Source: Cyanidioschyzon merolae (Eukaryota). Taken from it: 64,000 nt of DNA. The translations under genes and the position numbers were made by a program. Where the stretch lies: NCBI GenBank assembly GCA_000091205.1, contig AP006495.2; one strand, given 5' to 3'. This document shows, in pieces, positions 533 through 57,389 of this stretch (position 1 is its first letter; each line of letters begins with the position of its first letter). Below the pieces are notes generated by a model. That model was not told where the DNA came from, searched no databases, and worked only from the letters and a program-made list of their open reading frames with translations.

Positions 533-1690
533 GTGGACGCACCCCCGCGAGGTCATCGCTTACCGCGGGGCGCACTGGACCCCAACCGGGGTTGGACTTC
601 GTGCTCGCGCTCAACAATGGCGCTTCAATCAACTCGGGGAAAGAAAAACATTGGCATGCCAGACGCAGTCACTAGCTCGCTTGTCCCTGATGACGACTCT
701 TTAGCGCTAAAGCAGGCTGTCTCGCTCCTCATGCGCCAGAACGGTGTGTTGGTGTTGCACTTTTGCCGCTCACGGAAAGCGAACTCGAAACACTTCCCCG
801 AGTGGTGTGCGCTCGAGTTGCAAGCGCTATGCCTGCTGGGACGTGAAGCAGAAGCTGTTCGCTTCGCTCGGGAACTTTTACATAAGAACGACACTGTCGG
901 GTCGGCGTGGAGGTGCCCTCCACTGGTTCGGTGTTGCTTCAGTGTTCTGGCCAATTTCTTAGAACCGGACGAGGCTGCGTCGATAGCCAAAACGTGCTTG
1001 GAATCCTTCTTCAACTCAGTGGAAGCATCGCGCTGGGGCGAAGCGGACACGAGGGACCTGCTCGAGCGGGTCTGGCTCCGTGGCGTGCTCTTCGGCGAAG
1101 CGCTGCGCTTTCCGGGTCGTGAACAGCGGCGGGCTTGGCTCGAAAGACACCTTGCAGTGCTCGAGCATGCCATGAGTACTTCTTCCGCTGAAGGTTCAGA
1201 TGCACTGACGCATGCCCTGCATCAGTGGGTCTCGAAGGAGGCGTTGCAATCCCTGGCGAAGCGATGCATGACCAGCGACGCAGAACTCGACGAGCAGTCG
1301 ACCCTCGAACGGAATGAGCTTACGAGTCGCACTTGCGCAGCGGAAGACGAGACAACCCTGCGCTATTCTACCGATGAACGCGGACAAGTTCTCAATGCGC
1401 ATGTACGAGCTGCAGATGAGTCGGGGGCTGCTTCATGGTTGCCTATGGGAGTTTCGGCATCATTGCAGCGATTACGCCACAGGTTTCAGCATGATCCTGC
1501 ATTTGTTGCCGATTTCGTAACCTACACATGTGCTGGTATTGCTGCTCTTGGCTGGCTCATCTACGCTCACCGGACCCGTCAGCGGAAGCGGCTGCAGACC
1601 CCGGGCACTCGAATCGCGGCTAGAGGTTCGAATCGTTTCTGGCGCAGTGCCCGGGACCTGCTTCGGAGCGCGCTCTTTCTCGGTGTCTAG
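533..1690 (+). CDS. Hypothetical protein with one C-terminal predicted transmembrane helix (tail-anchored-like). The true start may be an internal Met.
   Basis: 385-codon ORF. A hydrophobic stretch FVTYTCAGIAALGWLIYA lies near the C-terminus, followed by a basic tail. I recognise no family motif. Confidence 0.3.
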   Translation: MDAPPRGHRLPRGALDPNRGWTSCSRSTMALQSTRGKKNIGMPDAVTSSLVPDDDSLALKQAVSLLMRQNGVLVLHFCRSRKANSKHFPEWCALELQALCLLGREAEAVRFARELLHKNDTVGSAWRCPPLVRCCFSVLANFLEPDEAASIAKTCLESFFNSVEASRWGEADTRDLLERVWLRGVLFGEALRFPGREQRRAWLERHLAVLEHAMSTSSAEGSDALTHALHQWVSKEALQSLAKRCMTSDAELDEQSTLERNELTSRTCAAEDETTLRYSTDERGQVLNAHVRAADESGAASWLPMGVSASLQRLRHRFQHDPAFVADFVTYTCAGIAALGWLIYAHRTRQRKRLQTPGTRIAARGSNRFWRSARDLLRSALFLGV

Positions 1691-2572
1691 ATATGCAGCT
1701 CGTTACTTACATGCGCTGACCACAAAATCGATGTGTGATGTCTCCGAGAAATATAAGATGAATCGAATATGCTGGGGAGGCATGATGCTTCGCTTGAGAA
1801 CCTCACGCTTTACGTCAGTTTTGGGGCCTTGGTGCAGCGATGGACCAACAGGTAGCGCTTGATGCTGTCTGGGCGACAAGAGACGTTTTTGTCTCCGTGT
1901 GCTCTACCAGAAAAGCATGGACATGCGCTCAAACACAGATTCGACACACACGCACATATAGACGCACAGCATTGTACAGACATCGCAAAAACGGTGCGAC
2001 GCTTCGTCGTCCATTGTCGTGACGGTGGCGGCTACGTACTTGTCTTTGATCTACCAACCGGGTTGAAATTGGTTCGAACATCAAGGCAGCGCATGTGGCA
2101 GCATCGGATACTTACCTCGTAATCGATTCCAGTTGCTCGCTTAGCGCTATATGCAGCGGGAGACAACCGGTCATAGAGCCGGCTTTCGATCATGGTGCAC
2201 CTTCATGCCCATTGCGTTCAAGATCCCCAGGTTGACGCAGGTTCTTCGAGCACACGTGAATCGATAAACAACGCAGCCTTTGGACTCCTCGCTTACAGTT
2301 TTTTTATGCATGGCATCGGTGTCCCTATCCATGACGAGCAATGTAGCGGGCACCGGTGCAGCACTACGCCTGCTGGGGCACAGCGCAGCCGGCCCTGAGG
2401 GCACAACGCGACGTGTGCCGTCTACGCAGCCCGGTGGCGTACAGAATCTGGGACAACACTGGATAAATCTGTCTTTGCTCGATGCGCGACGTGCAGGGTG
2501 CTGGTACCATTGCCCCGTAACTCATGTGCGGAAACGAGGCGCTATAGCGCGTGTCGACGGTAAAGACAGAGG

Positions 2573-4129
2573 ATGGAGCAGATCGAGCAAGGAACTTCAA
2601 ATATATCTCTCGATGATTACTTAAAGATGAGCGAAGAAGAACGGCAACAGCTTCCGAAAACTCGCTTGAAGAAACTGCAACGACAGGCGGCTCTGGCGGA
2701 GCGCAAAGCGGCGCGAGCGGCAGAGCTTGCAGCCAACGCTGCAACAGAGCAACGCGAACGACTAGAAGAGGCCCGGCAAGTGAGGATAGAGCTTGATTCG
2801 TCCCTGCCAAAGCCGCTGATCTGCAAACTTCGGGACATTTTCGCTTCTCCGGAGAAGTTCGTCGACCAGCGTGTGTGCTTGGCCGGCTGGGTGCACCACT
2901 GGCGCATGGACGGAAAACGTCTCGCATTCCTGGAGCTGCGCGATGGAACGGGTTTCATGCAGTGCGTATTATCGAACGAGTTGTGTATGACTTATGATGC
3001 GCTGACGCTCTGCCGCGAAGCCAGCGTGCGAGTCTGGGGCACCGTTCGCCACGACGCCCGCGCCAAAGGCGGTCTCGAGCTGCATGCCGACTTTTGGGAG
3101 CTCGTGGCACCCTCCACACCCGAGATAGAGATGGTGCTCACCCATGAATCCAATCCGGATATTCTACTGAACAACCGACACCTGGTGATTCGCGGCCGCC
3201 GAACGTCGACGACCTTGCGACTCCGCTCTCTCATAACGCAATGCTTTCGTGAGCACTACTTCCAGCGCGGGTATGTGGAACTCGCTCCGCCTACGATCGT
3301 GAATACCATGTGCGAAGGCGGCAGCACGCTCTTTAAGCTTGACTACTTTGGTATCAATGCCTATTTGACCCAGAGCAGCCAGATGTATCTGGAGAGCGGC
3401 ATTCCAGCTGTCGGAGACTGCTTCTGTGTATTGCCTTCGTATCGAGCTGAGCTGAGCGATACACGCCGCCATTTGGCTGAGTTTCATCATATCGAAGCTG
3501 AAATGCCGTTCATAACGTTCGCAGACTTGCTGGACGCTATCGAAGATCTCGTATGCGACGTCATCGCTCGAGTGCTCGCCAAGGCCGGTGACCTCGTCCG
3601 GGACCTCAACCCTGAGCTCGTGGTTCCGCGACGACCGTTCCGTCGCCTGACCTACGCTGATGCGATTGCGTATTGTCGGGAGCACGAAATCTACAAGGAC
3701 GAGGAACAGAAAATTCACTTCGAATACGGAGATGACATACCTGAACGGCCGGAACGACTTATGACGGATCAGATCGGTGAGCCGATCTTCCTCACGCATT
3801 TTCCGGTTTCCATGAAGGCTTTTTACATGCAGCCGTGCACCGATCAGCCGGATTTGACGGAAAGCGTAGATTTGTTGATGCCGGGAGTCGGGGAAATCGT
3901 TGGCGGCAGTATGCGCATCTGGCGATACAAGCAGCTCATGGACGCATATGCCCGTGAGCAGATCGACCCCAAGCCGTACTACTGGTATACGGATCAACGC
4001 AAGTTTGGATCCTGCCCTCACGGCGGCTACGGGCTTGGACTCGAACGATTCTGTTGTTATGTGCTCGGAGTGCGACACGTGCGAGAAGTATGTCTGTATC
4101 CGCGATATCGTGGCCGAATTTCGCCATAA
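2573..4129 (+). CDS. Asparaginyl-tRNA synthetase (class II aaRS), eukaryotic cytoplasmic type with a Lys/Glu-rich N-terminal extension.
   Basis: 518-aa ORF with class II motifs: FRAE..(motif 2-like SYRAELSDTRRHLAEFHHIEAE), GGSMRI, and motif 3 GYGLGLERF. The N-terminal OB-fold anticodon-binding region is present. Overall collinear with AsnRS. Confidence 0.9.
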   Translation: MEQIEQGTSNISLDDYLKMSEEERQQLPKTRLKKLQRQAALAERKAARAAELAANAATEQRERLEEARQVRIELDSSLPKPLICKLRDIFASPEKFVDQRVCLAGWVHHWRMDGKRLAFLELRDGTGFMQCVLSNELCMTYDALTLCREASVRVWGTVRHDARAKGGLELHADFWELVAPSTPEIEMVLTHESNPDILLNNRHLVIRGRRTSTTLRLRSLITQCFREHYFQRGYVELAPPTIVNTMCEGGSTLFKLDYFGINAYLTQSSQMYLESGIPAVGDCFCVLPSYRAELSDTRRHLAEFHHIEAEMPFITFADLLDAIEDLVCDVIARVLAKAGDLVRDLNPELVVPRRPFRRLTYADAIAYCREHEIYKDEEQKIHFEYGDDIPERPERLMTDQIGEPIFLTHFPVSMKAFYMQPCTDQPDLTESVDLLMPGVGEIVGGSMRIWRYKQLMDAYAREQIDPKPYYWYTDQRKFGSCPHGGYGLGLERFCCYVLGVRHVREVCLYPRYRGRISP

Positions 4130-6759: not shown

Positions 6760-8083
6760 CTTCGGGTGGACTTTCGCTCTCGAGAAGCGTCATCTTCAGC
6801 GCGACATGTACCGCACTCCGGATACATCGTCAATGAAACAAAACATGTCCCACGCTCGTCTAGGGCAAATGAATATCCACTCGCAGACGCCTGCCAGTCT
6901 TTTTTGGTAGGCCTACTGCTATCGACTTCAGCTTCTAGTTGAATACTTCGAGCATGAGAGGCTGCCCGACAAATTTGGATCGCGTCAGCTCCTTGGTCTC
7001 GTATTCAGTAACCCATCTTTTGGTAGTGATGGCCGCGTTGAAGTCCCAGCGCACGTATTCCATGTATTAATTGCCTCTGGTTGACCTCAGTAGTGCAAGG
7101 ATTCCGAAAACTCGCGCCCCACTGTACCACTACAGACTCGTGGCCGTTGCGTCCAAGAGATACCTTTTCTGGTCTATGTCCTCGCTTGTTCGTCACTCAC
7201 TCTTCTCCGCTCGATTGTCAGCGAGAAGAGGGCTTTTGCAATTATTTGTCGAAGTCGGCAATGACAATACTCCTGGATCCTCGACTTCCATGTCCATACC
7301 TACCCAATGGATTTTCTATTTCTCCATATGAACGCACATCGAAAGCATCTACTGAGATCCGGGATAAATCAATCAATTATGCGTACGTGGGTGCAGAACA
7401 CAATGAAAGGTGAAAGCAGGAATGATGGAGAGTTAATGGCGAACGCATTGTTTGACTACGGGGTACGCAGGGCCAGCAGGATCACCGATACGTTCGCGTC
7501 CGCTGAAGCAGAAGCAGCAGGGTTCGAGCGCGCTGCAAACTACGGGGTGTTCCTGCTGGCCTCTGATCCGACGCGTAAGCGTTTCTCGACCGTATGATGC
7601 CTACAAGAAACTGTTCTTTACATGGATGCTATCTGCCGATAGATGCTGATTTGTATAGATCCACATCACCAACTTGGGCGCTCATTCTATGCAACTCGCT
7701 TCTTTCTTGCGTCCTGTACGCGTTCTGAGGCGATAGATTGCCAATCGCCACCGTTCCGTGCCCAGCGACAAGCGAGTCGAATGATGCCTACAAGCACCAT
7801 AGCACATTCGATATACGACGTCGAAACTGGATGCTTCGCGTGCCCGCGTTCGACACGTATATAGTACAGAGGCTGGCGCGTGCCTCGTGCACGATACCCT
7901 CAACATTACAGGTGCTGAATGTAGTTCGAGCGCATGCTTACGCAGCCTGAAGTGATGCACAAGAACACGCTGTCTCCAGTCGATGCTATCGCAGACTCGA
8001 CACTTGCTTCGGCTGCAGTGCAGGTTCTGCTTGTGCGTCTGTGTGCATGTCCGGTGAGATCTTCTTTGCCGCCTTCTTAGGTT

Positions 8084-9283
8084 TCATTCCAACTTGAACA
8101 GAATCTTTCCCTTTCGATTCGGGGCAAACTGTGCCCGAAAAGCATCCTCATACTGTTCGAGTGTATATTCTTGCTCAACTTGCGGTCGCATATCACCTTT
8201 GCGAATCATTTCAAACGTTTCCTCGAAAATCGTCGGCTTCTGGTTCTTCAACCAAGTTGTAAGCGAGAAACCGCGGACAACGATGCCCTTAAAGATCAGA
8301 TCACTGTTCATGACACACGTCGGTTTGCCGCTCTGCAGCCCGTATGCCATGAAAAGGCCGCCCGGGGAGAGCGCTGCCAGCGCAGCCGAGCCCATCTCGC
8401 CGCCAACAGCGTCAACGACGGCAGCGAGCCCGCGTCCATTCGTTATCGCGTTGAGACGCTCGGCGAGGTTCGGCTCCTCGCCAAAAACGATCACCTCGTC
8501 TGCCCCGAGCTGTTTCAGTTCCGCAACAGATGCTTTCGATCGCACAAAGTTCACCGTGCACAAGCCCCGCTTTTTCGCCAGCTGGATGAACATACGACCG
8601 AGAGTCGAGTTCGCCGCTGTCTGTCCGATCCACGGGTTGCCGTGAACCGGCGCCTCCGCTTCGATCTGCTCCAACATGCCGACCACGGTCAGCGGATTCA
8701 CTATCAATTGAGCGGCCTCTTTATCACCGATATCCTGTGGTACTTTGATACAGAGGTTTTCGTCCACCACGAGGTACTGTTGCCAGCAGCCCGAGCGATC
8801 CGCAAGTGTTGGAATCACACGCGTCCCGACAGGAAGCGAGGTCGCTGGACCTTGCGCCACAACTTCTCCGACACCCTCGAGGCCGCCAACAAACCCAGGA
8901 CGACGTTCGCGCACTGCGGCTACCCCAGGGTACACGCCTTGGACGACAAACACGTCGGCAGGATGGAGGCATGCATACCGCATCTTCACGAGCACCTGAC
9001 CCGGACCAGGCTTCGGGACAGAAGCAGTGGTGTTCAACCTAAGTGCTCCCTTCAGCGGATCGCCAAAACTTACAATTTCCAGAGCTTTCTGCGTTGACGG
9101 TATATGTGTTGCCATAGAGTCTGCAAATCGGTTGCGTCTTCCAGCAACGACACCGCCAGGCCTGTGTCTGGAATCAATTTTGGGGCAGGGAGTGCGCACA
9201 TCAGGCTGGCCGCGTCCACCCGCCACACCTGGACCCGTGCCGCGGTATGCGAATGAATCTGGACTGTGGGAGGCAGCGTGCAT
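8084..9283 (-). CDS. Medium-chain dehydrogenase/reductase resembling mitochondrial trans-2-enoyl-CoA reductase (MECR/ETR1). The likely true start is the internal Met at 9115 (MATHIPSTQKALEI...).
   Basis: MDR-fold collinearity: an N-terminal GroES-like region, then a Rossmann region (AAVVDAVGGEMGSA). The 5' 170 nt of the ORF overlap family I element copy A, which argues for the downstream start. Confidence 0.7.
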   Translation of the reverse strand: MHAASHSPDSFAYRGTGPGVAGGRGQPDVRTPCPKIDSRHRPGGVVAGRRNRFADSMATHIPSTQKALEIVSFGDPLKGALRLNTTASVPKPGPGQVLVKMRYACLHPADVFVVQGVYPGVAAVRERRPGFVGGLEGVGEVVAQGPATSLPVGTRVIPTLADRSGCWQQYLVVDENLCIKVPQDIGDKEAAQLIVNPLTVVGMLEQIEAEAPVHGNPWIGQTAANSTLGRMFIQLAKKRGLCTVNFVRSKASVAELKQLGADEVIVFGEEPNLAERLNAITNGRGLAAVVDAVGGEMGSAALAALSPGGLFMAYGLQSGKPTCVMNSDLIFKGIVVRGFSLTTWLKNQKPTIFEETFEMIRKGDMRPQVEQEYTLEQYEDAFRAQFAPNRKGKILFKLE

Positions 9284-9950
9284 TCGTCAACTTTTTCAAT
9301 CAGTTGAGCGCCTTGAAGGAGGATCAAAGTCAGAGGCTCGTAGTAGCGTACGGAGCAGGGCGCTGGAAGACCCAAAAAGGGACGAGGCCAGCTCCAACGA
9401 CAAGAATGTATGAGGCGTGCACACGGCGTTTCGTTACGATACCGATAGATGAGTTCCGAATATCCTATACACACCATGAACTGGGATGCACACTTCAGAG
9501 GGTCGAGATGGAAACGTGCCAACGGAGCCCTGAGGATATAAAAAAGCACGGACCGCTGACGGAAGAGCAAATGGAAAGGAGGGCGAAAGTTCGTGCATTG
9601 CTTGCACTAGTGAGTACAACCAATGATAGTAAGAAACGTATGGAGTTCGTGAATCGTGACTTTAATCCTGCTATCAATATAAGGAAATGTGTGGTGCTGG
9701 AGACGAGACCTCCAGAGTAGACAAGAGAGAATTTTACTGGACAACCTCTCAAGGTTGAATCATATGAGAAAAAGCTGGAAGCAGTAGTGGGTGACCCGTC
9801 GAACAAGGCCGCGAGGCGTCTGCACATCAGTTGGTGACTTCTTGTCTAGGGCGCGGTTTCTCGCCACTACTGCACACCGCCGGCGACGTCGTTCGACTGC
9901 GAGAGGCGTTCGGCGGTGTACGAGGGGTGTGTGCTTTAAACGCCAAGCTT
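9170..9950 (+). mobile_element. Family I Fanzor/TnpB-like element, copy A. A 5'-truncated 3' fragment running from the RuvC-II region through the zinc finger and RuvC-III into the 3' non-coding tail. Boundaries are approximate.
   Basis: ORF 9247..9720 translates ...RLVVAYGAGRW...TTRMYEACTRRFVTIPIDEFRISYTHHELGC...KKRMEFVNRDFNPAINIRKC. The RuvC-III-like motif NRDFNPAINI sits at 9652..9681. The nucleotide sequence is collinear with copy B, 20386..21200 on the minus strand, including about 230 nt beyond the stop codon. Confidence 0.6.
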
Positions 9951-19068: not shown

Positions 19069-19764
19069 TTGTCGAGCGAACGGGACACACGGTGTCGCAC
19101 CAGTTTGGTTTCCACGAGTTTCGACCAGATGGCCGCGGACGTCAACCGTGAACCATCGTTTGCGTGTAGCGCTTGCGGTGCTTCCCAGACGCTCTTCAAA
19201 CGCTACACGCTTTGTATCGGCTACGGGAATGCGAACGGTACGGAAACTGTTTTACTGGGCTTGAAACAACGAGGCTTTGGTCGAGGCAAGTGGAACGGAT
19301 TCGGCGGCAAAGTCGAAGCAGGCGAAAACGTCTGCCAGGCGGCACTCAGAGAGCTCTACGAGGAAGCCGGCGTCCACATTGTTGCCGATGGCCATCCGTC
19401 GAGTGCGCGTTGCACCACACCTCGTCATGATATACGGCGCTTCCGATGGGCTGGTTGTCTGTGCTTTACCTTCGAGGCGAAGTCCATGCCCAGAATGCAT
19501 GTAGATGTATTCAGCGGTTCCATTTGTGCATGTCGAGAGCCACGTGCCAGCGATGAAATGATTCCGCAATGGTACGCGTACTCGCAGATACCCTACGAGA
19601 GCATGTGGCCAGATGACGCGATATGGTTGCCACTTTTACTTCAGCAGGATCAGGAGCTGCATCCTCGAATTCTAATCGCGGAGTTCATTTACAATGATGA
19701 CGCGGATAACATTTTGAAAAGCAACGTTCGGCTGTTACCTCGGGAGCAAGCTGGCATCTTCTAA
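19069..19764 (+). CDS. Nudix hydrolase of the NUDT1/MTH1 type (MutT-like).
   Basis: Nudix box GKWNGFGGKVEAGENVCQAALRELYEEAGV. GFGGKVExGE is characteristic of MTH1-type 8-oxo-dGTPases. Confidence 0.8.
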   Translation: MSSERDTRCRTSLVSTSFDQMAADVNREPSFACSACGASQTLFKRYTLCIGYGNANGTETVLLGLKQRGFGRGKWNGFGGKVEAGENVCQAALRELYEEAGVHIVADGHPSSARCTTPRHDIRRFRWAGCLCFTFEAKSMPRMHVDVFSGSICACREPRASDEMIPQWYAYSQIPYESMWPDDAIWLPLLLQQDQELHPRILIAEFIYNDDADNILKSNVRLLPREQAGIF

Positions 19765-20405: not shown

Positions 20406-22703
20406 TCAGCTCGATGATGGGGCAAACTTCGCACGAACCAGCAAGAAACGCCGTTCTAAAGTAGAACGTCGTCGGCGGTGTACAGTAGTAGCGACCGGTG
20501 CGCCTTGGACACCAAGTCGCCTACTGACGTGCAGACGCTTCCTAGGCTTTTTCGACCGGCCGCCTACTACTGCTTCCAATTGTGTCTCATATAGTAAAAC
20601 CTTAAGAGGTTGTCCAACAAAATTCTCGCGTGTCATCTCTGGAGGTCTCGTCTCCAACACCGCACATCTCCTTATATTGATGGCGGTAATAAAATCTCGG
20701 TTCACAAAATCCATCCGTTTCGTGCCGTTGGGAGTTGTACTTACTAATGCAAGCAGTCCACGAACTTTCGCTCTCCTTTCCATTTGCTCTTCCGTCAGCT
20801 GTCTATACTTTGCTATATCCTCAGGGCTCCTCTGGCACTTTTCCATCTCGACTCTCTGAAGTGTTAACCCCTGTTCATGGTGTGTGTGCTATGTTCGAAA
20901 CTCAACTACAGGTATCGTAACGAAACGCCTTGCACACTCCTTGTACATTCTTGTCGTTGGAGCTGGTGTAGTGCCTTTCTTGGGCACCCATCGTCCTGCT
21001 CCGTACGCTACGACGAGCCTCTGACTTTCCTCCTCCTTCAGGGCGCTCAACTCATTCAAAAAATTCGCGAACGCCCGCTGCCTCCCACCGTATAGATTCA
21101 TTCGCAAACGAGCCCACGGGGGTTGGTATACTCCTCCCATAGCGCATCCCGGTGCGCCATATGCGAACTTCCATGAATTTCCGGACAGCTCCAAAGTCCG
21201 CTCCTCGGCTCGTCACCTTACTCAAAGCTTCCGGGCGATCCTTCATTCCTGCATTCCGTTTCTCGATTTTCTTCCTCGCATTCATGATTCCCGATTCTCG
21301 ATAGTATCTCGCTCTCGAGATCCTCAAAAAAGACGCATGTCTTTCTGACGCAAGTTACCATCAGCACCATCTTCCGTACGCTTCGGTGCTACGATGGTTA
21401 TGATATTCGTATTCCCAGGGTCCGCGCCAACGACAAGGTCGTTATCCTGCACTTTCTGCGCGGCAGGATCCTCCTCCTTCTCATCTTTATGCATCGCCGC
21501 GCCAACGACAAAGTCGTTAGCTTGCACCTCCTGCGTCGCAGCATCCTCCTCTTTGTTTTCTTCATGCTTCGCCGCGCCAACGACAAGGTCGTTATCCTGC
21601 GCTTTCTGTGTCGCGGGACCCGCCTCTTTGTTTTCTTCATGCTTCGTGACGGGCGCAGCCGATGGAGGGACTGGACGATCTTTCTTCAACCTCCGATAGT
21701 GCACACACATGGCTACTCCATCGGGTTCGATCAACCCAGTGAATACCTTTTGTTTGCTCACTTTCAGACGTTTGAAATCGAAGATGCTCATCCAGTACGT
21801 CTCCCGGTTTCCGCCGGTGAAGTCCTCCCTGCTAACATCGAACTCCGGACAGATATCCCTCGTGATGCCGTAAAGGATTCTGGAGTTGATAGTCACAAAA
21901 TGTGACTTGATCTTGCACATTGGAACCACGTTGAAGTGCTTCCCCATTAGGACAGCCTTCCGTCTCTCCCACTCTTCCTTTGACTCTTCACTCAGCTTCA
22001 TCTCCGCTTTGCGTTCGAGCTCTCGGTCCAGAAACACAAAATAGCGCAGAACGAGGCGATCGTATCTTTCCCTATCTTTTTTCAACGCTGATATCTTGTC
22101 TGTTGGATTCGCCAGCCCCAGTACCGTACGATGCTCTTCGATAACCGCACGGATGACGGAATTCTCATTCGTGCTCTGGTTTGACTCCTTGTTGTCAACG
22201 AATTCGACCTCATTTCCATAGTTTCGATCGTTCGTGATGCCATTGATAATCGCCCATATTCCTTTGCGAGACAGGCCCCGGTAGAGTGCAAACACGGCGC
22301 GTATCATGAAACGTTCGAGGTTCATTCTGAAATGGTTCTTCAGATTCGTCAGGTACTTCATCGCCCCATATGTGTAGATATCCGCGTCACCCCTGTATTG
22401 GGTACCCTCGAAGAGGAATTCCGCGAAGTTTTCGTGGAGGACTTTCACCCGCTCATTTTCCCTCCGCGCTTCCTCTGTACCAAGCATCAGCTGACGAATA
22501 AAGGTCTTATCGAAAAACTCGTCCGGAATCTCGACCGTTTCCATGTTCGTCACGTAGAGGTACATCTCCTTCACCAAATGCATCAGTCCTGAAGATGCCT
22601 TTATCCTACTCATGGGGTACAACTCGAGAAGGTTTTTGATGGCCTCTCGCAACTTTTCCTTGTACGGATCCTTGATATATTTAAGAACACAGACTTTCAC
22701 CAC
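20406..22703 (-). pseudogene. Family I Fanzor/TnpB-like nuclease gene, copy B. It is near full length, about 640 aa in total, but is split into three reading frames by at least two frameshifts.
   Basis: Frame 1, 22703..21324, is 459 aa with an N-terminal helical region and ends in ...[19 protein letters not shown] (RuvC-I-like GxDPG, with the Asp near 21420). Frame 3, 21194..20889, reads RQRAFANFLNELSALKEEESQRLVVAYGAGRW...YKECARRFVTIPVVEFRT. Frame 4, 20846..20406, reads MEKCQRSPED...KRMDFVNRDFITAINIRRC (RuvC-III-like, 20673..20702). Compared with intact copy A, 14 codons (SYTHHELGCTLQRV) are lost at the 20846/20889 junction. Confidence 0.7.
21420..21644 (-). repeat. 75-nt (25-aa) tandem triplication inside the Fanzor-like ORF, immediately N-terminal to the RuvC-I aspartate.
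   Basis: Protein repeats [50 protein letters not shown] and [25 protein letters not shown]. Only the third unit keeps the Asp of GADPG. Confidence 0.6.
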
Positions 22704-23199
22704 TATCTCGTTGTACAGTTGTCTTTCTTGCCGCCTTCGACGTAGAACCTCCCCCTTTTTGAATCTTCATCACTTCCTGTTCCTCTTTGCTCCGCCTTGT
22801 TTATCTTTTTTTCCGGCAGCGGGTGATATCGGCCCTCCGGGATCCTCCACTTCCATTTCCATGACTTTCCTTTTAATTTTTTGAAAACGAACGCTCTTTG
22901 AACGCTTCTGTTATATACTTCGAAAAAACACTTGAATATACTCAATTGAGGGTCGGAATAGGATGGAACAGAAAACCTATACTTTGCTACGACCTCAACG
23001 CGAATACAACTTTTACAGTAGAATAGCACGCCAATGATCAGGATCACTGTTCCCCTCAAGAGCGACCAGAGCGTCGTGTCTCGTGCCCGCCGGATCTGCC
23101 AGGTGCGCGTGCACGCGCAGCGGCTGACCTGCGCCCCGCCGCCGATCAGGAGATTGCTTCTGGATATGTCTATCTCAAAGCGTGATAACCTGTTGCTGA

Positions 23200-25086
23200 A
23201 TGAACGCTCACCACAATGACTGGACTCCCGATAAAGTATTGGATACAGTGAGGGAATATGTGGACGCTGGAGCACTGTCGGAGTGTGCGGCACTGGACTT
23301 GCTGGAGCGTTTGCCGTTACCGCTGCTGGGCTGGACACTGGAGGAGTACGCGGTGCGGGCGTCGCTCGAGGCTTCAGACAGCGACGCGGTACCATCCGAC
23401 AACATATTTGATTCCGTCCGGGTATTAACGAAAACAATGGAGAAACTGGTCAAGCTCTCTGCAACAAGTGCCCGAGTGCGTCACCTCGTACCTATAGAGC
23501 AGGTGCTCCAGCTCATCCAGCTCGGTCTGAGCAGCCGGTACCCGCTGGTACGCACAGCTGCGCTTCGTCTGCTTTGTCTCCTTCTTGAACGTAATGACTT
23601 GCCTGAAGCGTTTTGTCAGCAAGTTGCAGACACCATTATCGAACGTTTTGAAAGTACGAACGAGCTTCGTCCGGAGATAGAGGCCGCACAAGCGCCAGGT
23701 CCAGAAGTGAACGCTAGCAGCACAACTGCACAGCACGCCAGCGATATCCTGTCACTGGTGCTGCTGAGCTTCCGTGATGATCCATCCACCGAAGCTGCGG
23801 GACTTTGTGAAAAAATCCTGAAGAACCTGGTACAGCTGAAGCCGTTCCGCGGCGCAGTTGTGCTCTTCAGCGAAGCACGAGGCGCGCAAATCCTCGTACA
23901 GGAGATGCTCTCGGGTGCAGCGGGTGCGGTTGCGCATATCCGAGCCTTGAACTTGCTGCTTGAGATCTGCGACTACTCGTCTGTTGCAGAGATTGCCGCA
24001 CGTCGGCTGTTGCCAACCGTGCTTGTAGCCAAAATCGCAGCTCCTGTTCGTTTGGATGAGGACATGCTACTCCGCTTGAACTTGCTGGATGTGCTTGGGG
24101 CTTTTATGCAACGCAGTGCAATAGCAGCCGAGTTGCTCGACCAAATTTCGGTATTCGATGTGCTGCTACGCCAACACCTTGCCTATTTGTTGGCGCCAGA
24201 CGAGCCTGCCTCGAGCGACTTGGCGGAACGCTGGTTTATTTGGATGTGTGGGATTCTGAGGTTCGTGCGCACCAGTGCCGGGTCCAGCCGTTGCGCCTTC
24301 CACGCTTGGATGAACGCCAATCTCGTAGAGATTCTTGGGCGCTTTCTCTTGCTTCACGTGGTAGATGGCGAGACTGAGACAGCACACTGGTCCGTACAAC
24401 TTGATCAAGTTCGTCGGACGACATTGCTGGTGCATCTGATCTCCGCGGTTGGCGCTCTGGGGCTCTGTGAACGCGGCATGGACGTGCTGCTTGCGGACGT
24501 TGACACCTTGAAACTAACGCTTCGTTTCATTCAAACGGCGAGCGTGTGCGATATTCGAGTGGCCTCCTTGCGTGCTTTGAGTGTGTTCCTGGCAGGTCTC
24601 GACGAGCCGCTTTCATCAGCAGCCGTCTCAGGGTACGGAGCCGCCGAATCCGACCTCGAATTTCGGCAGCAAAGGGTGCTGCATCTGTTCACTGATGCGA
24701 TCAGGGATGCGGATCCCGTCAAGGCGTTCACGAATGCACTGCCCATTGTCCTGGACTGTGCACGGCATCCTTCGGAAGAAGAGCGGCTCGCTGCTGCGGC
24801 GGTATTCGCTGCGCTAGGTCTGTCGAGAATCGGAGTTGTCGCGTTGGCTAGTATGGCGGGCTTTGTGGAATGGCTCTGCGACCCGGCGGACGCTTCTCTC
24901 GAGGTCCTGGAAGCTAAGATGCGCGTTGCACGACGCCTAGTTGAGCTGCACGCCAGTGACGGAGAAGTCGCATTCGGTGCGCTGAAATGGTCGCGTATTG
25001 TCGCCGTGGTCTCGAATCGAAGCGATCCTCGAGCTGTGCGTCAGCAGCGCGTGCCTGCTGTCAACATTGCCACTCTGAATCGTTAG
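23200..25086 (+). CDS. Hypothetical Leu-rich all-alpha protein, probably an ARM/HEAT-like repeat protein.
   Basis: 628-codon ORF with regular amphipathic Leu/Ala-rich helices. No catalytic motif is recognised. Confidence 0.4.
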   Translation: MNAHHNDWTPDKVLDTVREYVDAGALSECAALDLLERLPLPLLGWTLEEYAVRASLEASDSDAVPSDNIFDSVRVLTKTMEKLVKLSATSARVRHLVPIEQVLQLIQLGLSSRYPLVRTAALRLLCLLLERNDLPEAFCQQVADTIIERFESTNELRPEIEAAQAPGPEVNASSTTAQHASDILSLVLLSFRDDPSTEAAGLCEKILKNLVQLKPFRGAVVLFSEARGAQILVQEMLSGAAGAVAHIRALNLLLEICDYSSVAEIAARRLLPTVLVAKIAAPVRLDEDMLLRLNLLDVLGAFMQRSAIAAELLDQISVFDVLLRQHLAYLLAPDEPASSDLAERWFIWMCGILRFVRTSAGSSRCAFHAWMNANLVEILGRFLLLHVVDGETETAHWSVQLDQVRRTTLLVHLISAVGALGLCERGMDVLLADVDTLKLTLRFIQTASVCDIRVASLRALSVFLAGLDEPLSSAAVSGYGAAESDLEFRQQRVLHLFTDAIRDADPVKAFTNALPIVLDCARHPSEEERLAAAAVFAALGLSRIGVVALASMAGFVEWLCDPADASLEVLEAKMRVARRLVELHASDGEVAFGALKWSRIVAVVSNRSDPRAVRQQRVPAVNIATLNR

Positions 25087-25569: not shown

Positions 25570-27000
25570 GTAGAGGCGCTTCTGTTGATAGTCTTTCAAC
25601 TCAATTTTGTTTCATCGCGGCTACGGTATATAGGAGGAGGACGAAATCACTAGGTAATGTTCTGTATAGATTGTCGACGAATTGCATACGGCATATGTAT
25701 TCTTCACTGAACAATGCAATGATGATTGCATTGCTCCTCGATGTCAACCATACTGCTATACTCAGATGCTTGACGAGCACTGAAAGAAACAAGTATATGC
25801 GCTCCGGGCCGAAACCTGATATTCTCAAAGCCTGCTTGCAATCAGTGATAGAAAACGACCAGTTGATCAATTTAAGGGAAGCAAATGCGTCCATAGTAGC
25901 CACCACGGGCGTCTCTGTTTCTCAACAGCTTATTCGCGTGATCCTGAAAACACCGGGATCCAATCGCAATAAAGTGCTAGTTCATTCACGGCCAGCTTCC
26001 ACCGAAATCGCAGGCACGGTGTTCCTGGAACGTCGCGATCGGTATGAAGCACAGGAACATCAGTTTGTTTTCTCACTCGATGAGACTTGCTTCAAACGAG
26101 ACAATCGCAGTGCAGATGAATACTTGCTGAGCGGGAGCCCGTTGCACGTACGCTCGAAATCGTAGAGAACGTCGACATCATCATCTGTTCTAGCTGCGGT
26201 GGATTCATTTGGCTGCCTCAGTTCCGCTGAAGAGAACACTCATGCAGCAGCGCCCTCTTTTTGTCGAGTCATCGAAGACTTGTCCCAAACGTCTGGTGAA
26301 GTCCTTCTATTGGACATAGTGGTATTTAGCCATTCTGCTTCAGTTCGAGCATTTGCCAATTCTATCGACGGGTAGAGCTGGTTTCATTCCTTCTTCTCAC
26401 CTGTGTTTCATTCCCATAGAAGGAGAGTTTTGCGTCCTGAATCGTCACGACCGCTCCACCGGGCGAATAGATGAAGCGTTCAGCACATGGTGACCAACCG
26501 GGGCACATTTGGTCTTTATTCCGCATGTGCTGCTCGATGCGGGAAGGTCGTCATCTCAGGCTATAAACAAGTGCGTTCATTTTCGAAAAATCTAAGGGAC
26601 GAGCTGGAATATACACCCTAGGATGTTGAGTTGGAGCGAGGCCAGCGGAGCGTTTCGTCGACGGATCAGCACGAAGAGCTGACAGAGCACCCAATGGCAC
26701 AGCGTGCACGAGTTCGTGGTCTCCTATCATTGGTGAGATCAACCAGCGGCAACAAACGCATGGAGTCCATGAACCGAGACCTCAACGCTGGTATCAATAT
26801 CAGGAGATGCTTGTGCTGAATGCGAGGCACGCAGCGCTGCGGCAAGCTAACTTTGTTGGGCAGCCTCACAGCGTCGGAGTGTATATGGAGAAACTGAAAC
26901 CGATACCAGAACCCTGTAAGAAAAGGCTGAGAGACGTCTGCGGGTGGATATTCATTTACACGATATTGTGGCGAAACGGGTTTGCTGCACTGACGTAACG
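25570..27000 (+). mobile_element. Family I composite element, copy C. An IS630/Tc1/mariner-like transposase N-terminal fragment is fused to an internally deleted Fanzor 3' module.
   Basis: ORF 25671..26165 reads ...GPKPDILKACLQSVIENDQLINLREANASIVATTGVSVSQQLIRVILKTPG...RRDRYEAQEHQFVFSLDETCF, an HTH followed by the first DDE-type Asp context. ORF 26631..26819 reads ...KRMESMNRDLNAGINIRRC (26772..26801). The 3' conserved block 26938..26995 ends ...TTGCTGCACTGAC and is truncated. The whole copy is collinear with copy F at nucleotide level. Confidence 0.6.
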
Positions 27001-45229: not shown

Positions 45230-45761
45230 GTTCGAAATGCATTCATTTGAAGAAACAGAGAGAATCCAAGGAAAATTATAGACTGAAATTCGGGGATCCA
45301 GAAGGGCCCTCATCACCGCGTTATACCAGCGAACGAAAAATCCCCTAGTCGCCGACCATCGAGCGAAGAGGAACAAGTGACGAAGAAGCGGAAGCAAAAG
45401 GGAGATAGTCGCCAAAACGGTGATCTCTCGACCGGACGATGACCAGACTCTAGAGGCACATAGGGAACGAGAACCAGGAATCCATGCAAAGGTGACTTCA
45501 ACAGGAGCGAAGAAACGCAAAGAGTTCGTGAGCCGCGACGGAAACGCTGCTATCAATAGCAGACGATTTGCGGCGCTGAACGCGAGAGCCGACGAGCTGA
45601 TGCGATCCAAAATTGCGAGGCAGCGTCTCAGGATCCATGTGTGCCTGGATAACACTGACCCCGATACCAGGATGCGGGTGGAAACACACTGGGAGGCGTC
45701 TGCGCGCGGGTACTCATTTTGCCTCCATTGTCATAGAACGTTTATCGTTTTCCTGACCATA
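45230..45761 (+). mobile_element. Family I element, copy D. A 3' fragment followed by TA.
   Basis: ...KKRKEFVSRDGNAAINSRRF (45531..45560). Terminal block GTCTGCGCGCGGGTACTCATTTTGCCTCCATTGTCATAGAACGTTTATCGTTTTCCTGACCATA, then TA at 45762..45763. Confidence 0.55.
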
Positions 45762-49044: not shown

Positions 49045-49419
49045 CTAGGCAAAGAAGCGCTTTTTCTTGTCCCCAGCGCCACCTGCTCTGCGCTCGGGAG
49101 CTTCTGGAGACTATGAATGAAAAGCACGCACAGCACGCTCCTCGGCTCGCAGCGGTTTACCTGAATATTTGGCGTAGCTGTAGTGTGAGCACGTTTTACA
49201 CGCAAAAAAACCTCAGGAAAAGCGAACGTGATAAGTTGTCACGTTACATGGAAATCCGTGTTTCCGTTGATAGACTGCTTTGGGTAGCTTTATGTCATGG
49301 GGATCTGTTTGTGATGCGGCGACGACGACGACGACGACGCGCGCGGCATCTCGTACGGATACACGCTTGCAGTATTTCATCTCAATTGGGTTCCATCATC
49401 ACGCACGTGTCGTCAAATG

Positions 49420-49979
49420 CTATTTCGCGGTTTATTGCAGAGACATTCAAAGCGCGTTCCGTGGAAGGAATAAAACATCCCAGGGGAATGCACGGACCAA
49501 GTCGGGGACCCCGAAGGATCGTCCTCGCCAGGTGCCAGAAAAAACGAAAAATATCCTCTTGTCATCGAGTTTAGAGCGAAGAAGAGCAAGTGACAAAGAA
49601 GAAAAAGATGATGATTCGTGTTGGTAGGCGATTCAACGTGTACGCACGACGGAACGATGACGAGACTATGGTGGCACAGAGGGAACGAGTGCTAGGAATC
49701 CTTACAAGGATGACTTCAAGCATCCTCAATGCACGCAGTGAGCTCGTGAACCGCGACTTGAACACTGCTATCAATACCAGACGATTTTCGGTGCTGAACA
49801 CGAAACCCCAAGAGCTGACGCGAGCCAACTTCGTGGAGCAGCCTCTGATACTCAAAATGTGTAAGGAGAAGCTGGAGCCGATAGCAGGCGGCCGGTCAAA
49901 AAATGGTTGGGTGACGTCTGCGGGTGGGTATTCATATACCCTACATGATCGTGCGAAAACTTTTGTTTCAGTGACCACA
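49420..49979 (+). mobile_element. Family I element, copy E. A 3' fragment followed by TA. Its right end lies 50 bp upstream of the next gene's ATG.
   Basis: ...SELVNRDLNTAINTRRF (49749..49778). Conserved terminal block GTCTGCGGGTGGGTATTCATATACCCTACATGATCGTGCGAAAACTTTTGTTTCAGTGACCACA, then TA at 49980..49981. Confidence 0.6.
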
Positions 49980-55929: not shown

Positions 55930-57389
55930 CATTGTTCAAATGTTCGATCTTTATTTTTCAACTCAACTCGATCCTATCCACACTGACTGCAGTCGCATGC
56001 TTTCTCGCACTGTATAGCAGCAGATCAAGATCAAGATGCCATGTACCATACAGACGGTAGAAGAATTGCCTATAGGATCCATTCTTTACTGGACAGTGCA
56101 AGGGGATTGCATTTCTATCTCAGGTCAGTCATGTAACAGTACTCAAATTGTTGAAAGACTCGGCAAGAAAGAATAAGATGCGGTCAACGCCAAAACCGAT
56201 ACGCTTACGGACCGCTCGCGGTCCATGGTAGGAAAACGACCCGTTGATTACCTTACGGAAAGCAAAAATCAACGATAGTGTACACCACCACTGGCGTCTC
56301 TGCTTCCCAATAGCTTGTTCGTGTGGTCCTGAGAACACCTGGAAACACTTGTAAAACAGTCCCAGGTCATGCACGGCCATTCGCCACAGAATTCGCAACT
56401 GCAGAAGAGTTCCCGGAGCTTTGCGATCGGTATGAAGCAAATGGACAACGCTTTATTCTTTCAGTCGGTTCGATCTGCTTCGGACGAACCAGTCGGAGCT
56501 TGTATGGGTATTCGCATCGAGGCAGATCGTTGTATGTACGATCGAACTGGAAGCGAACGATGGCGCCATCTGTTCTAGTTTTAATGGGTTCATTGAGCGA
56601 CCTCTGTCTTGCTCGTGGAGCAGAAACATCCAACAGCACCAACCGCCTTGTCGAATAATAGAAGACTCTTCGCTGACGTACGGCGACTTTATTGGTCAAC
56701 GTGGCATTTGACAATCCGCCTTGCGTTCGAGCTTTTGGGAATTCTATCGGAATAGAGCTGATTTTCATTCCTCCGTACGCTCTTTAATTCAACCGCAACG
56801 AAAGAGTGCTTTCTACTGTGAAACGTAATCATCGGTCCACCGGGCGAGTCGCCGAAGCATCCAGCACACTGTGACACACCCGGGCACATTTCGTGGTCCT
56901 TCCGCAGGTCCTTCACCTTTGGGGAAGGTCCTCACCTAAACGCATAAAATAGTGCATTCATTTTCAGGAAATAAAAAATCGATGGTATGAGTTTGGATGC
57001 ACACTTCAGAACAAAGAGATGGAGAAGAGCCAGCGGAGCGCTTCGGTGATAGAAAAGCACCGAGAGCTGACACAGAACCAAATGACACAGAGTGAACGAG
57101 TTCTAGGAATCCTTGCATTGGTGGGTTCACGCAGCGACGATAAACGCATGGAGTTCGTGATACGAGACCTCAACGCTGCCATCAATATCCGACGATATGC
57201 AGAGCTGAAGACGAAACCCGCAGAGCTGTAACGATCCAACTTTATGAGGCGACCTATTAGGATCGAAGTTTGCAACGAGAAACTGAAACCGACAACAAGC
57301 AGCTGATCGAAAACGACTGGGTGGCGTCTGCACGTGGATACGCATCTACCCTACATAATCGTGCGACAATTTTTGTTCCACTGACCACA
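55930..57389 (+). mobile_element. Family I composite element, copy F: a Tc1/mariner-like N-terminal fragment plus an internally deleted Fanzor 3' module. Followed by TA.
   Basis: Nucleotide sequence collinear with copy C. ORF 56323..56658 reads ...LRTPGNTCKTVPGHARPFATEFATAEEFPELCDRYEANGQRF... ORF 57019..57231 reads MEKSQRSASV...KRMEFVIRDLNAAINIRRY (57160..57189). Terminal block GTCTGCACGTGGATACGCATCTACCCTACATAATCGTGCGACAATTTTTGTTCCACTGACCACA, then TA at 57390..57391. Confidence 0.6.

Follow-up and report, generated by a model that had tools for sequence, protein, structure and literature searches.

What does the minus strand of chromosome 13 of Cyanidioschyzon merolae 10D encode between an 8-oxo-dGTPase-like (NUDIX) gene and the gene CMM108C, and is it a working gene or a relic? 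We analyzed a 64-kb stretch of this chromosome (hereafter the window; all coordinates are window positions), in which a sequence-only reading had proposed a TnpB/Fanzor-like open reading frame (ORF), called copy B. The proposal was sound in its essentials, and a minus-strand coding signal indeed runs through three frames at this place. Our results indicate, with a probability of roughly 0.93, that positions 20449 to about 23118 (minus strand) are a pseudogenised copy of CMe-1A, a family of elements that carries Fanzor1.

Fanzor was defined by Bao and Jurka (2013, Mobile DNA; PMC3627910), who described a single Fanzor1 family in C. merolae, CMe-1A, with a 3,169-bp consensus encoding a 734-aa protein and about 150 copies that are ~80% identical to the consensus. 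The same authors reported no terminal inverted repeats (TIRs), listed the target-site duplications (TSDs) as undetermined and the classification as unknown, and noted 95% identity between the 5′ 635 bp and TE-N2_CMe, which is a repeat in its own right. Using the consensus from the supplement of that paper, we aligned copy B by blastn and MAFFT with consensus positions 658–3169 at 85% identity (window 23110–20449, minus strand); membership of a family is taken as at least ~80% nucleotide identity over most of the length, and copy B showed 85% over 2.5 kb. The copy occupies 20449–23118 (minus strand), with a 3′ end that is exact (46 copies) and a 5′ end placed to within about ±10 nt by the core start in 26 copy groups. 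Copy B is without the 5′ 635–657 bp that resemble TE-N2_CMe and begins at consensus position ~645–658, and most sampled copies likewise begin at 648–690; copy B is the common short form of CMe-1A, devoid of the 5′ TE-N2 module. It shares with the published element the genome, the ORF, the 3′ end, and the lack of TIRs, and differs from the consensus in having three 75-nt repeat units instead of one, in being broken by stops and frameshifts, and in lacking the TE-N2-like 5′ part. The earlier description of an autonomous copy was not upheld, as the element encodes no transposase and the family is unclassified in the literature. A search with the repaired copy B protein gave 31 relatives (E values from 0 to 1.6e-59), well past anything attributable to chance, the best of which was an intact 752-aa protein from hot-spring metagenomes (P0001, 71% identity). 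For comparison at the DNA level, 71 related loci were fetched from hot-spring metagenomes, and an orthologue (L077) was added later; a long ORF with all three catalytic motifs was kept in only 1–2 of ~60 sampled copies. Copy B thus belongs to a family known since 2013, and what goes beyond the literature is only the loss of the zinc finger across the clade, the variable 25-aa repeat, and the make-up of the CMe-1A termini.

The coding region is longer than was first described. It had been drawn as an ORF of ~640 aa at 20406–22703; the real start is an ATG at 22860–22862 (minus strand; MEMEVEDPGGP, against MEKEVEDPGGP in the consensus), and the frame comprises ~785 codons because two extra repeat units add 50 to the 734 codons of the consensus, within an element of ~20449–23118. 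A RuvC-I Asp had been placed near 21420, and an Asp codon (GAC) was found at 21420–21422. Most of the protein strings quoted in the sequence-only reading, namely, the RuvC-I string, RQRAFANFLNELSALKEEESQRLVVAYGAGRW, YKECARRFVTIPVVEFRT, and FVNRDFITAINI, are present in copy B. The string EFRTSYTHH..C is not: copy B reads VVEFRT-stop-HTHHEQGL with a TAG at 20889–20891, and the corresponding string is EFRISYTHHELGC in copy A (9245–9893) and EFRTSYTHHELGC in the consensus. The N-terminal half (21647–22755, minus strand) encodes a helical, REC/WED-like region according to the structural model and the profile alignment, with Pfam DUF8286 as its only, and weak, domain match. Directly upstream of RuvC-I lie three tandem 75-nt (25-aa) units (21422–21646, minus strand; Tandem Repeats Finder: period 75, 3.0 copies, 83% matches). 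The 25-aa unit adjoins the GADPG codons and is a duplication of the strand (..NDLVVGA-) that leads into RuvC-I, and the number of units per copy varies from 1 to 4 (one in the consensus, two in the locus L004, three in copy B and the locus L010, and four in intact P0001); an in-frame gain of 150 nt in copy B relative to the consensus equals two extra units. Copy A is a 650-nt C-terminal fragment with 81% identity to copy B in a self-comparison, and over the shared 650 nt, we found only 1-nt indels and not the 42-nt deletion that had been counted as one of the frameshifts; a gap of 42 nt would leave the frame unshifted, so such a deletion could not be a frameshift in any case. Near the C-terminus, a basic KKPRKR stretch was read from the sequence at 20535–20552 (minus strand), just upstream of the lost stop codon.

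To which branch of the TnpB homologues this protein belongs was addressed with deep profiles. A profile search of 1.84 billion representatives returned 2,529 relatives at E ≤1e-3, and a 108-sequence alignment (A2) was built from relatives found in this search. When the resulting profile was compared with the PDB by hmmsearch, it gave exactly three matches, all of them Fanzor1: PpFz1 from Parasitella (E = 7.2e-25), SpuFz1 from Spizellomyces (4.6e-19), and GtFz1 from Guillardia (6.9e-12). The alignments with these solved proteins begin in the REC region, end at the C-terminus, and are collinear throughout. A profile of eight sequences returned only noise from the PDB, and Pfam scans of the relatives gave only sub-threshold Cas12f1-like_TNB matches. 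An AlphaFold model of an intact relative reached a predicted local distance difference test (pLDDT) score of 83 with the 108-sequence alignment and 35 with the 8-sequence alignment. Residues 1–375 were modeled confidently, and both the model and the profile align them with the REC/WED region of Fanzor1; the linker at residues 376–469, which holds the 25-aa repeat, was of low confidence and is the only disordered part. The best Foldseek match of the model was SpuFz1 (E = 2.6e-16; template modeling score of 0.71 on the target). The predicted fold is therefore RuvC/RNase H-like, with Fanzor1 as its best match, and the three frames of copy B join collinearly with intact relatives and with the solved Fanzor1 proteins, so that neither of the two outcomes named in the earlier note as refuting its claim was seen. 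Profile alignment and the modeled fold together identify the copy B ORF as a Fanzor1-derived TnpB homologue. As a separate observation, P0001, P0030, P0031, and others carry the precomputed Pfam label PF26935 (DUF8286), a domain of unknown function, and our results indicate that PF26935 covers part of a Fanzor1 protein.

The catalytic residues could be located on the minus strand by alignment with SpuFz1. The RuvC-I Asp (GAC in G-A-D-P-G; 21420–21422) aligns with D383, an alternative RuvC-II Glu (GAG in V-V-E-F-R-T; 20901–20903) with E541, and the RuvC-III Asp (GAT in V-N-R-D-F; 20694–20696) with D606; the three residues fall on positions 777, 935, and 1000 of the 8gkh chain, which become D383, E541, and D606 after subtraction of the tag offset of 394. 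These residues coordinate two Mg2+ ions in SpuFz1 (Saito et al., Xu et al.). That copy B has no canonical RuvC-II Glu, as had been noticed from its letters, was confirmed: the position is taken by the Gly of V-A-Y-G (GGA; 21000–21002), which is invariant in the 108 relatives (108/108). An alternative Glu, which the earlier note had advised looking for, proved to be the Glu of VVEFRT, inside a string that it had quoted. This Glu is present in 108/108 relatives, ~33 residues past the Gly of V-A-Y-G, within a family motif that reads D-E-F-R-T; in Fanzor1, the alternative Glu is expected right ahead of the [TS][TS] motif. The three residues D/E/D are jointly kept in 103 of the 108 relatives, with a nearly invariant RuvC-I Asp and a RuvC-III Asp in 104. 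All Fanzors have in common a canonical RuvC-II site filled by an inert residue, an alternative Glu tens of residues downstream, and DPG at RuvC-I (Jiang et al., Yoon et al.), and DPG in RuvC-I is a Fanzor signature as opposed to the D-hydrophobic-G of TnpB (Yoon et al. 2023). Copy B shows each of the corresponding Fanzor1 features, that is, DPG (GADPG), the inert residue with the alternative Glu, and the R-D motif (FVNRDF). The rearranged glutamate is hence a general, published property of Fanzors and not a peculiarity of copy B.

By contrast with the active site, the zinc finger that had been reported for copy B could not be found. The segment that corresponds to the C4 zinc ribbon of TnpB and SpuFz1 (20697–20888, minus strand) contains one Cys and no CxxC in copy B; in the stretch that separates the alternative Glu from the RuvC-III Asp, 103 of the 108 clade members are without CxxC, and 65 have no more than one Cys. 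The cysteines are kept in the three solved Fanzor1 proteins and in ISDra2 TnpB. GtFz1 (PDB 9CER) and PpFz1 (PDB 9CF0), at 12–14% identity, have CxxC...CxxxC between the alternative Glu and RuvC-III. SpuFz1 (PDB 8GKH, 9CEU–9CEZ) resembles the CMe-1 protein in its collinear profile alignment, in being the best Foldseek match, and in the aligned D/E/D triad, but the two are only ~14–15% identical; the NUC/TNB domain of SpuFz1 contains a CCCC finger, and its element ends in inverted repeats of 30 nt, neither of which occurs in CMe-1, whereas CMe-1 has the repeat-containing disordered linker before RuvC-I. In this alignment, the whole CMe-1 clade consists of Fanzor1 proteins that lack the C4 zinc ribbon and have kept the triad. 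The missing finger, together with the failure of single-sequence searches, could speak for another TnpB branch, either a Fanzor2/IS607-type protein or a TnpB transferred from a bacterium or an organelle. The combination of features that would mark a Fanzor2/IS607-type protein (Fanzor2 or IS607 TnpB as the nearest relative, a short REC, and a serine recombinase) was not found. ISDra2 TnpB and Cas12f have a zinc finger and a REC that is much smaller; after the β-strand, where CMe-1 has Gly, they have the canonical Glu, and their RuvC-I motif is D-hydrophobic-G instead of DPG. We regard an origin from another TnpB branch as extremely unlikely.

The lesions of copy B, scored against the CMe-1A consensus on the minus strand, amount to five frameshifting indels and two nonsense codons; at least two frameshifts had been claimed, which was right about the ORF being broken and too low in its count. 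A first block lies in a basic, nuclear localization signal-like segment near the N-terminus (22756–22812; −1, TAA, +1) and consists of a 1-nt loss in an A-run (22806–22812, at about 22806), a TAA nonsense codon (22801–22803), and a 1-nt gain (~22756–22760). The loss is not found in the loci L010 and L011, and the gain is common to both; since the 3′ half of L011 is chimeric, only its 5′ half was used. In the RuvC region, there are a +2 in a T-run (T6 homopolymer; 21326–21331), a +2 at 21160–21163, and a −1 at ~21123, which sum to +3 and are all private to 10D. Strain comparison placed these three frameshifts, with ~15 substitutions that are likewise all private to 10D, in a 250-nt patch (21117–21365). 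Further downstream are a TAG nonsense codon in place of the consensus TCG (Ser) at 20889–20891, which is common to L010 and absent from L077, and a CAA in place of the consensus stop TAG at 20505–20507; through this lost stop, the ORF runs past the element end to 20406.

Two further versions of this copy helped to judge the lesions. L077 is a true orthologue, 98.2% identical to window positions 21495–17976 including the flank with the NUDIX gene; it has neither the +2, +2, and −1 frameshifts nor the TAG, and it carries a stop of its own (RMAH-stop-DALW). L010 is 94.7% identical to copy B over 2.4 kb and has a different 3′ flank; in common with copy B, it has the TAG, three repeat units, and the +1, whereas the remaining four frameshifts are missing from it and it carries two others. 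Every strain version (copy B, L010, and L077) thus carries at least one stop. The suggestion that the breaks are assembly errors may hold for the three 10D-private frameshifts of the RuvC region; it does not rescue the ORF, because both nonsense codons, the N-terminal indels, and the loss of the normal stop are there whatever caused those three. That copy B might be a live Fanzor1 gene, its breaks being assembly or sequencing errors or being bridged by programmed frameshifting or readthrough, draws on the same facts: the three frameshifts are private to 10D, sum to +3, are absent from L010 and L077, and include one in a T6 run. Even without them, however, the TAA, the TAG, the −1/+1 pair near 22806/22756, and the lost stop persist; the TAG and the +1 are also present in L010, which is an independent assembly, a different stop occurs in L077, no coding sequence is annotated here in 10D, and the ratio of nonsynonymous to synonymous polymorphism (pN/pS) between copy B and L010 is 0.87, that is, neutral. 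A live gene is consequently very unlikely.

How the private patch arose is a separate matter, on which the reading of copy B as a dead CMe-1A copy does not depend. The three frameshifts could be clustered real changes, a conversion tract, or a local reference flaw. In a sliding comparison, copy B was the odd one out at 21359–21120, with ~18 private differences including the three indels, and L010 equaled L077 there; inside the patch, copy B shows 4–5 differences per 60 nt against both, and elsewhere, all three differ by 0–2 per 60 nt. One can therefore suppose that positions 21117–21365 were converted by a more decayed 10D copy outside our sample, or that the assembly is poor there. A similar 60-nt patch in L077 (20940–20881), in which L077 is the odd one out with 9 private changes, implies that exchange in patches, or the assembly of chimeras, does take place in the family. 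Yet the patch of copy B is still closest to L010 and L077 (92–93%), other sampled copies reaching ≤88%, so that no donor was found, and metagenome contigs can themselves be chimeric, as the 3′ half of L011 is. We take such a tract or flaw to be a reasonable possibility, though less likely than not. More generally, the patchy differences among the strain versions suggest gene conversion, chimeric metagenome assembly, or local errors of the reference. A side observation concerns L010, which departs (2378–2398) from the window flank (20430–20448) right after the terminal ...GGCGTT despite having the TAG in common with copy B; this short contig may be chimeric, or a second copy of an already dead element may have arisen at another place, mobilised in trans or through duplication.

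The ratio of nonsynonymous to synonymous substitution rates (dN/dS) was 0.36 for copy B against the consensus, 0.38 for the intact locus L001, and 0.36–0.40 for the copies overall, whereas pN/pS between copy B and L010 reached the above value over 712 codons at ~5% divergence. Equal dN/dS in intact and dead copies is the expected result of selection on the active element lineage before insertion. There was purifying selection while the lineage was active, and copy B has drifted neutrally since. The statement that copy B is a recently decayed copy therefore stands as to the decay and only partly as to its recency, given that the strain versions also carry stops and that the drift is neutral over ~5% divergence. 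The dN/dS of 0.36–0.40 and the distance of 90 nt between the element and the start of a host gene might be taken to mean that copy B is a domesticated, Fanzor-derived host gene with a cellular function. Many copies with a precise common 3′ end, the multiple stops, the neutrality between strain versions, and the same dN/dS in intact and dead copies, as pre-insertion selection on the element would produce, all oppose this, and we consider it the least probable of the explanations. Programmed frameshifting, domestication, and Fanzor2 membership were all considered and rejected.

The termini of the element were defined from the copies. The 3′ end of CMe-1A is exact in 46 copies (L003–L072) and reads ...CGTTCGACTTTCGAACGGCG, that is, ...GAA(A/C)GGCG, with the terminus ...GAACGGCG. 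In copy B, the corresponding 3′-terminal hairpin (20449–20469, minus strand; ACGUUCUA-CUU-UAGAACG-GCG, then flank TT) shows a G-C to U-A double change. The last ~23 nt fold as a hairpin with a mean z of −2.2, as measured against mononucleotide-shuffle controls only. The 3′ flank opens with TT in 38–41 of the 46 copies and continues loosely T/G-rich, with a TTNGNTG-like bias; no target preference is given in the published description of CMe-1A (Bao & Jurka 2013, PMC3627910). RNAalifold on 36 of the 3′ ends yielded eight pairs and −3.1 kcal/mol with no covariation, and in a hand-specified structure of three hairpins, 86% of the cells were paired, with covariation not above that of shuffles. The 3′ hairpin may, by analogy, be part of a guide-RNA scaffold or a transposition signal.

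At the 5′ side, a palindrome read from the sequence (GCGCGTG/CACGCGC; 23105–23118, minus strand) starts the common core; in other copies, the core-start palindrome is CGCTC-GGT-GAGCG, close to position 640 of the consensus. The sequences that precede it in the loci L001–L073 fall into five or more recurrent modules that are unrelated to one another, with TE-N2-like ones in either orientation among them. In L043, L044/45, L053/56, and L061, two partial elements lie head to head. Full-length copies (L005, L015, L018, L023, L033, L039, L041, L046, L055, and L056) have GAT(T/C)TTTTTTC directly before consensus position 1; this may mean that ~11 nt are missing from the 5′ end of the published consensus, or else that insertion is into a T-rich site. 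No TIR was found when the core 5′ end was compared with the 3′ end, in agreement with the published description. We also found no Helitron2-type asymmetrical terminal inverted repeat (ATIR) next to the 3′ hairpin; one inverted match of 11/12 nt, 62–74 nt from the end, was rejected as an ATIR, being in the wrong place and without covariation among the copies. Neither an empty site nor a TSD was found, as the contigs with CMM108C variants all break at the 5′ edge of the element. To our knowledge, no RepHel is known from the C. merolae genome. Comparable termini, with hairpins at both core ends in CMe-1A, occur in the nonautonomous, Helitron2-type Fanzor1 elements CRe-1/2/3 of Chlamydomonas (Bao & Jurka 2013, PMC3627910), which, like CMe-1A, have no TIRs, a 3′ terminal hairpin, a 5′ core-start palindrome, T-rich flanks, and extra 5′ sequence as in one-ended transposition, and which, unlike CMe-1A, are expected to have an ATIR next to the 3′ hairpin.

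Several points weigh against the reading of copy B as a decayed Fanzor1 of the CMe-1A family. The motif published in 2013, D-X-[TS][TS]-X-X-[C4]-X-RD, lists C4 as strictly conserved (Bao & Jurka 2013, PMC3627910), and this zinc finger is missing; it is the only sequence criterion from which the CMe-1 clade departs. A zinc finger is ascribed to “many” Fanzors (Yoon et al.), so that its absence weakens the fit to the 2013 motif and is still compatible with Fanzor1 membership. As a single sequence, the repaired 766-aa protein gave no meaningful match in hmmscan against Pfam or in phmmer against the PDB, and the link to Fanzor1 accordingly needs the deep profile. Of the five frameshifts, three do not occur in two assemblies of related strains and sit in a 250-nt private cluster. 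Beyond the terminal hairpin, no conserved 3′ RNA structure was shown, covariation was not significant, and there was no Rfam match. We know of no nuclease assay of any CMe-1 protein.

On the reading as a CMe-1A pseudogene, the ancestor of copy B encoded a Fanzor1 protein of ~734 aa, in which a basic N-terminus was followed by a REC/WED half made of helices, a linker with a variable number of 25-aa repeats, and the RuvC nuclease. Its active site consisted of the Asp of DPG, the alternative Glu of D-E-F-R-T, and the Asp of N-R-D, the canonical RuvC-II position being taken by Gly, and the C4 zinc ribbon has been lost in the CMe-1 clade. If it works like its homologues SpuFz1, GtFz1, and PpFz1, an intact protein would associate with a noncoding RNA from the 3′ end of the element and would cut guide-complementary DNA beside a short motif, with the triad holding two Mg2+ ions. 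Guidance by RNA, the place of the guide RNA in the element, and any part played in its spread are inferred. Copy B itself has none of these functions; it is broken and unannotated and has drifted neutrally since it died.

For the lineage as a whole, ~2,500 relatives, the triad in 103/108, and dN/dS of ~0.37 are consistent with an active, RNA-guided Fanzor1 branch without a zinc finger. The hairpin-bearing 3′ end with TT, the 5′ palindrome, the lack of TIRs, and the interchangeable 5′ modules would fit a carrier that does not move by cut and paste, whether single-strand, one-ended, rolling-circle-like, or homing. We offer this combined reading only tentatively and think it rather unlikely. If true, such a route would link the nuclease guide, which would come from the 3′ flank, to the spread of the element. 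The locus itself matters little, being an unannotated relic of a catalogued family with the textbook Fanzor arrangement of the glutamate. Of modest value could be the existence of a large Fanzor1 clade that dispenses with the zinc ribbon kept in every solved Fanzor1 and TnpB, since it bears on what the TNB/NUC domain requires to function and may guide those looking for small and robust editors. C. merolae is a thermoacidophilic alga that grows at ~42–45 °C and very low pH. For the question, dating from 2013, of how CMe-1A moves, handles are provided by its sharply defined 3′ end, the TT that follows, and the modular make-up of its 5′ side. In a distant relative, P0031, which is 28% identical to the CMe-1 protein and also has no zinc finger, the ORF lies directly downstream of a DDE_3 (Tc1/mariner) transposase ORF (locus L002, 164–889 and 1117–2988); other clade members may ride in ordinary cut-and-paste transposons.

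The surroundings of copy B are those of the 10D chromosome. Six long ORFs in the window are exact matches to 10D chromosome 13 proteins, and the exactly matched host ORFs include asparagine-tRNA ligase, CMM103C, CMM108C, Ca-ATPase, and glutamate dehydrogenase 2. Copy B lies between the NUDIX gene (19129–19764; BAM80977.1) and CMM108C (23200–25086, plus strand; BAM80978.1), and because these accessions are consecutive, no protein is annotated between them in 10D. The noncoding 5′ leader of the element (22863–23104, minus strand) ends ~90 nt from the divergent CMM108C (ATG at 23200). CMM108C has a paralogue, CMQ418C, on another chromosome, with at least 90% identity and in the same 90% protein cluster, and the pair suggests a segmental duplication that took in the neighborhood of copy B.

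Using tblastn and blastn, we found six further CMe-1A fragments in the window (67–88% identity): 6883–7119 (minus strand), copy A at 9245–9893 (plus; also by self-comparison), 26668–26893 (plus), 45510–45578 (plus), 49371–49459 and 49740–49921 (two pieces of one fragment, plus), and 56987–57335 (plus). Nearly all of these represent the last third of the element, with the detection biased toward the best-conserved region. The fragment at 49371–49921 looks like an internal-deletion derivative that kept a piece of the 5′ leader and a 3′ piece. The five fragments other than copy A are older.

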